A stretch of 32,000 nucleotides of DNA from Ignicoccus islandicus DSM 13165 (GCF_001481685.1 NZ_CP006867.1:180001-212000), one strand, 5' to 3'; positions 16,682 to 26,374 are shown, counted from the stretch's first letter. Notes: generated by a model not told the origin, from the sequence alone. Numbers and translations: made by a program.

Positions 16682-19642
16682 TTAGGGCTTGTAGAACGAT
16701 TGGAGGGAACGCGATACCTTATTTCGGCTCCTAATGGGGCATTCAATTCCTAGTTGCTTACTCAACTCGATCAGTGCTTCGCCCTCAACTTCGTCGGCTG
16801 TAAGGACTATGCAGAGGGCAGACGCCAAGTACTTGGCCTCGTCCACGTAATTGTAATAACGGTCCTCCAAATCTCTATATTTAGATTGGAAGTCGTTGGA
16901 CGAGTACGCGCTAACTGCGTAGTATTCGAGCAAGTGCAACGCATCGATTGCTGTGAGCGGAGTGGGGTCCCTCGGATCAATTCCCTTTTCCTTAAGGAGT
17001 TCGAAGAGAGCCTCTGTTTTCTCTTTCCCTACAGGTTCGAGCAACGCGTATTCCTTAGATCTGGAGCCGGAACGCTCAGTGAGCACGCGCATATCAACCA
17101 AATCTCTTACGGATAGGTTACCGAGGAGAGATAAATATATAGCCGTGTTGGAATCAATCCTTCTTCGAGAGTTACCTCCCTTCTCTAAGAGCTTCGTAAG
17201 TACGTAGAACCTCGATTCGATGCTTAGGGAGCCGTAAATACTCGAACCCAGTATTCCTTTAAGCAACGCCTCAGTAGTTAGCGGATACACGAATTTCTCT
17301 ATGAGATTGCTTGCGTCTCCCTTGAGCCCGATTATCTTGGCGTACTTCGTAGCGACTGACAACACGCATCCCATTGTGTATACGAACAAATCGAACCCTT
17401 CTAAGCCTTCCTTCCATCCTCTTTCCGATGCGCCAGGACACTTTTCGAGGACCTCGTTCCTCGCTTGCTGGAGGTTTATTGCATTCCCTATTCCCTTCCT
17501 AAAAACAACTACGAGGGAGGTATCTAAAACGCTCTTCCCCCTCCCAGTCACTCTCTCCCTCGATTCCGTTGCCATAGGCCAAGTAGCACTGACCCTTAAT
17601 CCAGCTCCCTTACTGGCCTCTAATAGCGCGCTCCAAGCCTCGGGAGTCGTATGGGCGTAGTAGACGACTAGCACGCCATCTTCCTTGAGTACGTTGCTCA
17701 TTGACCGAAAGGCCTTAGTTAGTAGCTTCTCGAAGTGTTCGTAGCTCCCAACTCCCTCGCCGAAGTGCTTGCTCCTACCAAGGTTCTCGCTCACTTCCTT
17801 ATCCGCGAAGCGCTCCCACTGAGTACCTATTTCAATGCCATCCTCGAAGAAGGCCTCGGGTAGGAACTTGGGTTCTAAGACCTTTAATCCAAACTCTTCC
17901 TTTACATCGCTTAGCGCCCGCTTAAGCCAAACGTAGTAGAAATCGCTTAGTTCTGCGTAGGGCACGTCATCTCTATAAGGTGGATCAGTAACAATTACAT
18001 CAAACATCTCATCTCCAAACTTGTTAAGCGCAGTAGTATCATCGAGTAAGACCCTAACCCTGCTAGGGCTATCAGAAATGGTAGAAACAAGATAAGACAA
18101 ACCATTTACTAACGTGTTGAGATTTCTTAGGTATGTTCCGGTCCAGCTAGCCCAAGGTGTCATATCATTCCAATTCCACATCATAGCAATACCTCTCATT
18201 GAGAGAGAATGTCCCATTATTAGAGACTGATTCCATCCTGTAACAAGAGAACTATAATCAGCATACTTACATAGTGCTATTGCTAGGTATGTTGTTATTG
18301 CTTCTGTGTATCTGTATGCTTCCTCCCTACTCCATCCTTCTCCTAGCTTTTCTTCCTCGACCTTCCTACCTACCTCGCGTATTAGCTTTACCAACTTGAT
18401 TATGGTGAGGAGCTGGCGTGGGTTGAAGAGCTTATAAAATCTATCGAATCCCCACACCCATATGCTTAGTGCACCACCACCGCTTGCCGAATATCTCCAC
18501 AAACCTTCACTTGGTACATCCGGATCTCCCCAGTATTGCTTTAATTTTTCAAGCGCCTTCCATAGCTTCTCTTGATCCTTCATCTCTGCTGGTTGAAATT
18601 CCAATCCATTGTTTCCTACCCTTACCTTTACCAGAATTCTCGGTCTAGCCCTCGATGCATTTATCAGTGTATTTAAGTCGATTTGCCCTTGCAAATATTG
18701 TTCCAGTTTATTGTTCCATTCCTTTAGAGCTTCCTTGACGTACCACTCTTTGCCGCTTTTACCAATTTGATTACCGCAGTGTAGGCAAATAGCGGTGCTC
18801 CTCCTAGCGTCCACGTTCTTCTGTGGTACCCTGAACTCCTCACCAGCTACCTTAATCGTGCCCTTAGATGCATCAACCTTAGCGTCTATTGACTTGACTC
18901 CCAGTTCCTTAGTTAGGTCCCTTACGTTTACTTCTATTCGATCACCGCTTTTCACTGGTTCCATCCAAGCCAGTCGCTTGTACTTTCCTTTCGAGTCTCC
19001 TACCCTGGCTAACCACCAATTGCCTACTAGAGGCGTCCACTTGCCGCAATGCGGACACTTCACTTCCCAAGTGCCTATGTAGACGGCGACGTCTTCATCG
19101 TATAACTCCTTCAAGTCCGGATCTTCCTTCAGTCTCTTCGTGATCCATTCTCCCCAGCGTTCCACTCCCTTGACTAGTTCCTCTCCCATTCCATTCTCGA
19201 CTGCCCACTTAGGGTACTCTAGAATTGCCTTAAGGAAGACGTAGGCCGTAGGCAGAAGCTCGGTTGCAACTACTTCCTCTACCCCCAGTCTGACCGCCTC
19301 TAGGGGTAAGTTTCCGAAACCAGCGAACGGATCGAGGAATTTGGCTCTGAAACGTCCCTTCCATTTATCGGGAATAGACGGATTGAACTTATGAGGTATT
19401 TTCTCATGGAGCTTTAAGGCATATATGAACTCGCTTTTATCTACGTCTTCGGGTAGGAGGGCTCCAGCTATTACAGCCCTCGCACCAATCAAAGGCTTCC
19501 TGGTCCACCAAAAGATCATTTCCCAATGGGGCGGCCTCCCACCGCCTTGCTTCTCTTTTAAGGATTTCTCGTTTATCAATCTTATAGGGAACTTCTCAGT
19601 TTCGATAAACCTTCTCAAATTAGTGGACCGAAGACTTGCCAA
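16682..19642 (-). CDS. DUF1156-type Zn-ribbon-containing N6-adenine/N4-cytosine DNA methyltransferase (PglXI-like)
   Basis: N-terminal FPIRLINEKSLKEK...HWEMIFWWTRKPL (DUF1156-like WWARRP block). SAM motif I FLDPFAGFGNLPLEA (about 19314-19340). Two CxxC pairs, CPHCG and CLHCG. Catalytic motif IV TDPPY (17975-17989). TTG start. Confidence 0.88.
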   Translation of the reverse strand: MASLRSTNLRRFIETEKFPIRLINEKSLKEKQGGGRPPHWEMIFWWTRKPLIGARAVIAGALLPEDVDKSEFIYALKLHEKIPHKFNPSIPDKWKGRFRAKFLDPFAGFGNLPLEAVRLGVEEVVATELLPTAYVFLKAILEYPKWAVENGMGEELVKGVERWGEWITKRLKEDPDLKELYDEDVAVYIGTWEVKCPHCGKWTPLVGNWWLARVGDSKGKYKRLAWMEPVKSGDRIEVNVRDLTKELGVKSIDAKVDASKGTIKVAGEEFRVPQKNVDARRSTAICLHCGNQIGKSGKEWYVKEALKEWNNKLEQYLQGQIDLNTLINASRARPRILVKVRVGNNGLEFQPAEMKDQEKLWKALEKLKQYWGDPDVPSEGLWRYSASGGGALSIWVWGFDRFYKLFNPRQLLTIIKLVKLIREVGRKVEEEKLGEGWSREEAYRYTEAITTYLAIALCKYADYSSLVTGWNQSLIMGHSLSMRGIAMMWNWNDMTPWASWTGTYLRNLNTLVNGLSYLVSTISDSPSRVRVLLDDTTALNKFGDEMFDVIVTDPPYRDDVPYAELSDFYYVWLKRALSDVKEEFGLKVLEPKFLPEAFFEDGIEIGTQWERFADKEVSENLGRSKHFGEGVGSYEHFEKLLTKAFRSMSNVLKEDGVLVVYYAHTTPEAWSALLEASKGAGLRVSATWPMATESRERVTGRGKSVLDTSLVVVFRKGIGNAINLQQARNEVLEKCPGASERGWKEGLEGFDLFVYTMGCVLSVATKYAKIIGLKGDASNLIEKFVYPLTTEALLKGILGSSIYGSLSIESRFYVLTKLLEKGGNSRRRIDSNTAIYLSLLGNLSVRDLVDMRVLTERSGSRSKEYALLEPVGKEKTEALFELLKEKGIDPRDPTPLTAIDALHLLEYYAVSAYSSNDFQSKYRDLEDRYYNYVDEAKYLASALCIVLTADEVEGEALIELSKQLGIECPIRSRNKVSRSLQSFYKP

Positions 19643-26374: not shown

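Follow-up and report, generated by a model that had tools for sequence, protein, structure and literature searches.

An Hma-type defense locus of Ignicoccus islandicus with a conserved fourth gene between its ATPase and helicase-nuclease genes

We analyzed a 32,000-nt stretch of DNA from Ignicoccus islandicus DSM 13165 (NZ_CP006867.1:180001-212000), hereafter the window, which carries a compact locus of four genes encoding a methyltransferase (HmaB), an ATPase (HmaC), a 141-aa protein and a helicase-nuclease (HmaA) (Table 1). The methyltransferase gene is transcribed away from the other three, and the Hma core genes, with one intervening gene, are packed into 9.7 kb. Both promoters presumably lie inside the hmaB/hmaC spacer, with A/T-rich TTTATATTAATA and TTTAAA as their candidate elements. 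A motif scan of the proteins showed that the catalytic motifs of the methyltransferase, ATPase, helicase and nuclease are all intact. An earlier note on this stretch had delineated the same four open reading frames (ORFs), exactly in position and length; every motif that it quoted was found, and its calls of DUF1156, DUF499, SNF2/Helicase_C and DUF3883 (now NOV_C) were borne out by the Pfam matches given below.

Table 1 Positions of the features discussed, in the window and in related loci
Feature	Sequence	Position	Strand	Length	Basis
hmaB (DUF1156-type, probable amino-methyltransferase)	window	16682-19642	-	986 aa	Pfam, PADLOC, motifs
hmaB/hmaC divergent intergenic region	window	19643-19792	.	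150 nt	read from sequence
hmaC (DUF499 ATPase)	window	19793-23050	+	1085 aa	Pfam, PADLOC, motifs
Fourth gene (basic alpha+beta protein)	window	23047-23472	+	141 aa	gene junctions, synteny, HMMER, AF2
hmaA (Swi2/Snf2 helicase + NOV_C nuclease)	window	23399-26374	+	991 aa	Pfam, PADLOC, motifs
First ORF downstream of hmaA	window	26493-27062	+	189 aa	
Second ORF downstream of hmaA	window	27062-27259	+	65 aa	
Third ORF downstream of hmaA	window	27319-27732	+	137 aa	
CRISPR mini-array	window	~9390-9773			
Inverted repeat, first arm	window	9923-10247		325 nt	
Inverted repeat, second arm	window	31676-32000		325 nt	
Lactamase_B_2 gene	L004	12428-13711		~427 aa	
Lactamase_B_2 gene	L009	8113-9399		~427 aa	
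Lactamase_B_2 gene	L027	8140-9387		~427 aa	
Lactamase_B_2 gene	L028	12458-13741		~427 aa	
Gene without Pfam match	L026	12519-13829		436 aa	
AAA_15/AAA_21 ATPase gene	L001	10577-11830	-		
AAA_15/AAA_21 ATPase gene	L002	14705-16965	-		
AAA_15/AAA_21 ATPase gene	L027	9871-11541			
DUF1156 methyltransferase, called as two genes	L002	3593-6513	-	114 aa + 857 aa	
DUF499 ATPase, split	L010	3-2669		628 aa + 245 aa	
Small ORF, uncalled	L025	8319-8666			

The ATPase is matched by Pfam DUF499 across residues 89-976 (439 bits, E 3e-131) and by the PADLOC model for HmaC (194 bits, E 1.2e-57), and it carries Walker A (GGGKT, residue 59), Walker B (LVLIDE, 174) and YPFHPDY (311). We classify HmaC as a predicted STAND/ORC-like AAA+ ATPase of the HEPN-less variant, because Walker A already stands at residue 59 and leaves no N-terminal HEPN domain. 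Its C-terminus probably contains an Ig-like beta-sandwich, as hinted at by a weak, sub-threshold match to the Filamin repeat (E 0.016, about residues 882-963). HmaB is matched by Pfam DUF1156 (39 bits, cut-off 24), by the PADLOC model for HmaB (180 bits, E 9.6e-54) and by the REBASE-type MTase_II model PDLC03352 of PADLOC-DB (760 bits), with weak N6_N4_Mtase/UPF0020 Pfam matches around DPPY. FWWTRKP (45), motif I FLDPFAGFG (102) and motif IV DPPY (553) are present, and a target-recognition insert of ~450 aa with two CxxC pairs (196, 286) separates motifs I and IV. The DPPY motif marks HmaB as probably an exocyclic-amino methyltransferase, with N6-adenine (m6A) as the predicted target. A search for solved structures with sequence kinship to HmaB or HmaC found none.

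The 991-aa helicase is matched by Pfam SNF2-rel_dom (63.6 bits), Helicase_C (63.3 bits) and NOV_C (82 bits), as well as by the PADLOC model for HmaA (224 bits, E 6.9e-67). Its helicase motifs are GLGKT (80), DEAH (175), SAT (209) and QRLGRVWRYGQ (517), and the PD-(D/E)xK nuclease domain NOV_C occupies residues 883-969, with the residues D...E925-V-K927 present. The PADLOC PLD_Helicase and NCBIfam matches cover the helicase core only (residues 253-555), and Pfam found no PLD (HKD) domain. The match to the HmaA model begins at profile position 102, and motif I at residue 80 leaves just ~25-50 conserved residues ahead of the helicase core.

The Hma models gave the best matches among named systems in PADLOC-DB for all three large proteins. 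Hma ("helicase, methylase, ATPase") was defined as a three-gene candidate defense operon present in 1,638 loci from 26 phyla (Payne et al. 2021, PMC8565338), and its domain content is Snf2-rel_dom, Helicase_C and NOV_C/DUF3883 in HmaA, DUF1156 in HmaB and DUF499 in HmaC (Liu et al. 2024, PMC11232893). Rakesh and Krishnan (Nucleic Acids Research 2026, PMC12839542) recast the same loci, sighted previously in 2013 and 2020, as BREX-Related (BR) systems centered on DUF499, after bacteriophage exclusion (BREX), and distinguished three types. Type-1 combines the ATPase with an N6-methyltransferase and a Swi2/Snf2 helicase bearing an active C-terminal PD-(D/E)xK restriction endonuclease (REase), and is found in 2,446 taxa, of which 203 are archaeal; in Type-2, DUF3780 joins the set and the helicase carries an HKD domain; in Type-3, PglZ and iSTAND are present and the helicase is without a nuclease (PMC12839542). 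The locus is a member of this known, named and widely distributed defense family and not a new kind of system. The novelty of architecture that the earlier note had implied was therefore not upheld: the triad has been called Hma since 2021 (PMC8565338), and the relation to BREX without PglZ has been set out as Type-1 BR (PMC12839542). Our full reading is that the locus is the I. islandicus copy of Hma (Type-1 BR), belonging to a four-gene crenarchaeal sub-clade and working by a mechanism like that of restriction-modification (R-M) systems; we put its probability at about 0.8.

We considered whether the locus could instead be ordinary BREX type 3 or Type-3 BR, with PglZ, BrxA or iSTAND lying beyond the window or fused within the ATPase, or else DISARM, Dpd or Zorya. 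The helicase does match the DrmD, BrxHII, DpdE and ZorD models, as expected since all of these are Snf2 helicases, and the kinship with BREX type 3 noted earlier holds in that an ATPase, a DUF1156-type methylase and an Snf2 helicase are shared. The partner genes are missing, however. PglZ had no match among the ORFs of at least 80 aa scanned in the window, nor in nine related loci; BrxA, BrxB, BrxF (iSTAND), Lon, HKD, DUF3780, an R-M endonuclease and an S subunit were absent from the window ORFs in Pfam and PADLOC searches, as the earlier note had held for PglZ and for most of these; and of the DISARM, Dpd and Zorya partners (DrmA/B/C, DUF1998, DpdA-C, ZorA/ZorB) the window has none, the Snf2 core alone matching. 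The stretch covered extends 16.6 kb upstream and 5.6 kb downstream of the locus, and a contig encoding an identical protein stops where the window does on the right. Fusion within the ATPase is opposed by the extent of DUF499 in that protein, domain searches of which gave no alkaline-phosphatase-fold match, and the active-looking nuclease of the window helicase has no counterpart in Type-3 BR or BrxHII helicases (PMC12839542). We give these possibilities next to no credence.

The 141-aa protein, to which a hypothetical protein on record for I. islandicus is 99% identical, is the sole undescribed element of the locus. It has no match in Pfam, PADLOC or NCBIfam and is not mentioned in the Hma and BR literature that we examined; the supplements of the BR paper mention neither Ignicoccus nor a fourth Type-1 gene (PMC12839542). 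Its gene shares 4 nt with hmaC at the hmaC stop (GTGATG) and, at its own 3' end, 74 nt with the start of hmaA; the hmaA frame has a single start codon, the TTG at 23399, which lies 74 nt inside the small one. Searched exhaustively with HMMER, 1.84 billion representatives yielded a family of 26 clusters, almost all stand-alone proteins of 117-152 aa, whose named members all belong to Thermoproteota (Ignicoccus, Ignisphaera, Pyrobaculum and Desulfurococcaceae/-ales). The family is basic, with an isoelectric point of 8.8-10.4 in 25 of the 26 members (9.2 for the window protein). A metal cluster is unlikely, because the cysteines are not conserved family-wide.

Gene context could be retrieved for members in ten distinct loci (the window, L001, L002, L004, L006, L008/L009, L010, L026, L027 and L028), and in all ten the homologue, at 24-50% identity, lies exactly between the DUF499 and Snf2-NOV_C genes. 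Its junction with the ATPase gene is tight, the two genes overlapping by 4 nt at one extreme and lying 30 nt apart at the other. Toward the helicase gene, it overlaps the start by 11-74 nt in seven loci and is free of overlap in L001, L008 and L028, with a 25-nt gap in L001. The closest relatives are 139-aa homologues in L001, from a Thermoproteota metagenome-assembled genome, and L002 (48-50% identity), where the ATPases are ~43% identical to that of the window; 55 columns are invariant among these two small proteins and that of the window.

AlphaFold2 (AF2) modeled the 141-aa protein with high confidence (predicted local distance difference test score, pLDDT, 91.5; predicted template modeling score 0.86). 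Strands at residues 7-18, 21-28, 32-35, 55-58 and 62-66 and helices at 38-52, 70-85, 89-101, 104-121 and 123-136 give the topology beta-beta-beta-alpha-beta-beta-alpha x4. Foldseek searches with this model returned nothing significant against the PDB (best E 0.06, template modeling (TM) score 0.25) or BFVD (best TM score 0.28). We made two side observations on the family. In P0005, residues 82-129 gave a colinear, sub-threshold match to Pfam DUF7680 (19.8 bits, cut-off 24; a profile of 141 positions), a domain that may be a distant relative and on which we found no literature. In P0004, a 1596-aa protein, the small-protein profile matched in 27 separate stretches (profile positions ~22-62, 143 bits), which looks like either repeats of the N-terminal beta-hairpin/helix unit or a low-complexity artifact.

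Could the small ORF be an unrelated embedded gene, such as a mini-defense or selfish element, a spurious ORF or a split-off hmaA pseudogene fragment? Foreign genes are embedded in 63% of Hma loci, the helicase ORF runs 74 nt into the small one, and on L025, a Logan contig of the same genome, automatic gene calling left the ORF uncalled, although NCBI annotates a 137-aa hypothetical protein; surveys using such gene calls would miss the fourth gene for this reason. A random embedded gene was nevertheless rejected in view of the constancy of the slot in ten of ten loci despite divergence to 24-50% identity, and in the loci examined the family never occurs outside an Hma context. A spurious ORF or a frameshifted hmaA start was rejected on the conserved L001 and L002 homologues with their invariant columns, on the loci in which the small gene lies clear of the helicase gene, including L001 with its gap, and on the hhalign comparison with canonical HmaA. 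That comparison, against the first 300 aa of HmaA from L011 and L013, gave a probability of 0.1% and likewise rejects a detached HmaA N-terminus or Tudor domain. Taken together, an unrelated, spurious or fragmentary ORF is very unlikely.

The helicases of these loci differ from canonical HmaA at the N-terminus. The canonical bacterial references, from Thermus oshimai (L011, 1161 aa) and Fervidibacter (L013, 1131 aa), have ~65 extra N-terminal residues; none of the six helicases aligned from loci with the small gene, that of the window and five relatives, has them. Rakesh and Krishnan place a Tudor domain at the position of this N-terminal module (PMC12839542). The earlier note missed both the missing canonical N-terminal domain of the helicase and the conservation of the 141-aa gene. 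What is new here is a crenarchaeal variant with four genes, in which the helicase is Tudor-less and a conserved, basic protein of ~140 aa has a fold unmatched in the PDB or BFVD.

The same position after the ATPase gene is taken by DUF3780 in Type-2 BR, where its gene follows that for DUF499 directly on the 3' side and overlaps it by 4 nt. A role comparable to the one that we propose below has been suggested for DUF3780 in Tudor-less Type-2 systems (PMC12839542). The 141-aa protein might be a divergent, shortened DUF3780, and the locus a Type-1/Type-2 hybrid with a C-terminal REase and a Tudor-less helicase. Position and coupling agree, the N-terminal Tudor is absent from the helicases of both sets, the fold published for DUF3780, with five helices and a sheet of four strands (PMC12839542), resembles our AF2 model, and hhalign produced a colinear alignment of 82 columns that pairs 'E.E..FWYSK' with 'PEERWWLYSKT'. 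However, that alignment falls short of significance (E 0.4, probability 0.15%, with a diverse 14-sequence DUF3780 profile; a 3-sequence profile was also tried), HMMER cross-searches scored negative bits, and none of the 26 family members matched Pfam DUF3780 at E<=1, nor was there a PADLOC or NCBIfam match. The lengths differ (~140 versus ~196 aa), and AF2 gave a DUF3780 model of insufficient quality for comparison (pLDDT 52). We regard this reading as unlikely, and the comparisons made do not support it.

We propose the following mechanism for the Hma system of the window. HmaB would mark self by methylating an exocyclic amino group, probably that of N6-adenine, within a specific motif of host DNA, as its motifs I and IV and knowledge of the family suggest. 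HmaC, with variable C-terminal sensor domains, would scan DNA, recognize unmodified or invader DNA and assemble or license the effector. HmaA would translocate through its Snf2 motor and nick or cleave through NOV_C, a step suggested by the intact residues and by the activity of the Halomonas orthologue: Halomonas HmaA alone protects E. coli against phage T4, the NOV_C fragment by itself nicks supercoiled plasmid in the presence of Mn2+, and defense and nickase activity are both lost in a quadruple mutant (D1084/E1104/K1106/E1121) (PMC11232893). These data agree with the earlier view of the nuclease tail as the likely effector. They also qualify that note's remark that no mechanism is established, since the orthologue has been shown to act against T4 with a nickase; the remark stands insofar as the mechanism is only partly characterized. 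The architecture is, in short, already named and in part mechanistically characterized.

In the same scheme, the 141-aa protein would be a stoichiometric subunit, translationally coupled to both neighbors, that replaces the lost Tudor-like domain by binding DNA, reading the mark or bridging partners. We propose this adaptor or reader role because of the strict synteny, the gene overlaps and the correlated loss of the helicase domain. Carried to its full extent, the proposal is that Hma/Type-1 BR of hyperthermophilic Thermoproteota is obligately four-component: the ~140-aa basic protein of unmatched fold would replace Tudor, bridge the ATPase and the Snf2-nuclease and perhaps read the methyl mark, as an independent parallel to DUF3780. 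We advance this version tentatively, at somewhat less than even odds.

Several points weigh against the reading of the locus as an R-M-like Hma system with a fourth subunit. The PADLOC paper terms HmaB a 5-methylcytosine (m5C) enzyme in its text (PMC8565338), whereas the DPPY motif, like the 2026 BR paper (PMC12839542), favors the amino-methyltransferase assignment. PADLOC clustered Hma genes with <=3 intervening genes, and its curated sets additionally demanded a single strand, a filter that the window locus would fail with hmaB on the opposite strand. The adaptor or reader role draws on two lines, synteny and correlated domain loss, and comparisons of the small protein with Tudor domains, the HmaA N-terminus and DUF3780 detected no similarity. 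Finally, Halomonas HmaA alone defended E. coli and was non-toxic without the methylase (PMC11232893), so that a simple model in which unmethylated DNA is cut fits poorly.

This last point leads to a different account, in which HmaA is a lone sensor-effector like Hna or Nhi, acting in an abortive-infection-like manner or by sensing replication intermediates, while the methyltransferase and ATPase are separate or modulating and self is not discriminated by methylation. Plasmid-borne Halomonas hmaA alone indeed protects E. coli from T4 as well as a larger construct does, and it is harmless in an unmethylated host, for which the authors used the term 'non-canonical Abi' (abortive infection) (PMC11232893). 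These data nevertheless come from a single orthologue challenged with a single phage in a heterologous host. The three genes have been co-inherited over 26 phyla and >2,400 taxa, those of the window are tightly packed and overlapping, and the catalytic motifs of the methyltransferase are strictly retained. We consider a lone-acting HmaA quite improbable and retain the R-M-like Hma system. A search for literature on defense or the methylome of I. islandicus found none.

The locus is flanked by housekeeping genes: TopoVI-B, UbiD, radical SAM, Clp1-like and L37Ae genes on one side, and pyrophosphatase, AIRS-like and MarC genes on the other. Elsewhere the window encodes phosphoglucomutase, SAM synthetase, an XPD-like helicase, OMP decarboxylase and HIT. 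The earlier note had described the locus as a mobile island between two repeats associated with clustered regularly interspaced short palindromic repeats (CRISPR), and this found only weak support. There is one CRISPR mini-array, unreported by Tandem Repeats Finder and Rfam. Its ~26-nt repeat, CTTTCTATTCCCTATTGGGATTCTAC, occurs in four good copies and one or two degenerate ones at a spacing of 62-70 nt; the leader is probably on the right, because the degenerate copies stand at the left end. The second 'repeat' is instead one arm of a 325-nt inverted repeat whose arms are 89% identical and 21.4 kb apart, the second reaching the end of the window. The arms look like duplicated CRISPR leaders, since the first lies 150 nt from the array, and a second array would be expected just past position 32000. 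They are not transposon ends and set no limits to a mobile element, because most of the ~21 kb that they enclose consists of essential genes. No integrase, tRNA, Rfam RNA or tandem-repeat hallmark of a mobile element was found in the window.

In favor of acquisition, GC content is modestly lower across 16.7-27.7 kb, and GC content at third codon positions (GC3) is 0.47-0.55 from hmaB through the ORFs at 26.5-27.7 kb, versus 0.54-0.61 in most housekeeping neighbors. This is compatible with, and not proof of, a horizontally acquired insert of ~11 kb between L37Ae and pyrophosphatase. The three ORFs directly downstream of hmaA, which have no match in Pfam, PADLOC or NCBIfam, share the lowered GC3 of the locus and may be part of the same block. 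The third of them showed no similarity to the ORF that follows the helicase gene in L001.

The related loci offered further observations. In co-directional crenarchaeal Hma loci, a gene encoding a Lactamase_B_2 protein of the metallo-beta-lactamase fold follows the helicase gene within ~10 nt; L026 also has a 436-aa gene without Pfam match. The Lactamase_B_2 gene is absent from the window, L001 and L002, the loci with a divergent methyltransferase, and could be either a fifth conserved part of the system or an accessory nuclease. AAA_15/AAA_21 (ABC/OLD-type) ATPase genes adjoin several related loci, including L001, L002 and L027, in keeping with published work that links Hma to Septu-like ABC-ATPase defense systems. 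The DUF1156 methyltransferase of L002 is called as two genes, of which the shorter holds DUF1156, and the DUF499 ATPase of L010 is split; these may be frameshifts, decaying copies or assembly errors.

The correlated swap, in which the helicase loses an N-terminal domain and a coupled small protein is gained, amounts to a natural experiment on how Hma/BR systems and, by extension, BREX couple the ATPase, the methyl mark and the helicase-nuclease. The proteins are thermostable, and with a small-protein model of such confidence they would lend themselves to structural studies of the complex.

Compared with Hma as published, the window locus encodes three proteins of identical domain content, and the D/E-x-K residues of the nuclease are conserved. 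It differs in that its methyltransferase gene is divergent and not co-directional, its helicase is ~150 aa shorter and without the N-terminal module, and a conserved gene stands between hmaC and hmaA; the host, moreover, is a hyperthermophilic crenarchaeon. With Type-1 BR it shares the tripartite core, the active-looking C-terminal PD-(D/E)xK domain on an Snf2 helicase, the HEPN-less ATPase variant and a DUF1156 N-terminus on a predicted N6-methyltransferase with a Zn-finger insert for target recognition, and PglZ, iSTAND and DUF3780 were not detected. Unlike Type-1 BR, which is described with an N-terminal Tudor and as ATPase, methyltransferase and helicase only, it has an empty Tudor position and the extra conserved gene. 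Type-2 BR resembles it in a small stand-alone alpha+beta protein whose gene immediately follows that of the DUF499 ATPase with translational coupling, in its Tudor-less helicase and, probably, in a beta-sandwich at the ATPase C-terminus. Yet the nuclease of Type-2 is an N-terminal HKD domain and that of the window a C-terminal PD-(D/E)xK domain, the small proteins have no detectable sequence similarity, and in Type-2 the methyltransferase gene sits between the DUF3780 and helicase genes. The ATPase, methyltransferase and Snf2 helicase scaffolds of BREX type 3 (BrxF, BrxC, PglXI, BrxHII, PglZ, BrxA) are homologous to those found here, and both systems presumably mark self by methylation, whereas the window locus is without PglZ, BrxA and BrxF, its ATPase belongs to the DUF499 clade and not to BrxC, and its helicase carries a nuclease of its own.

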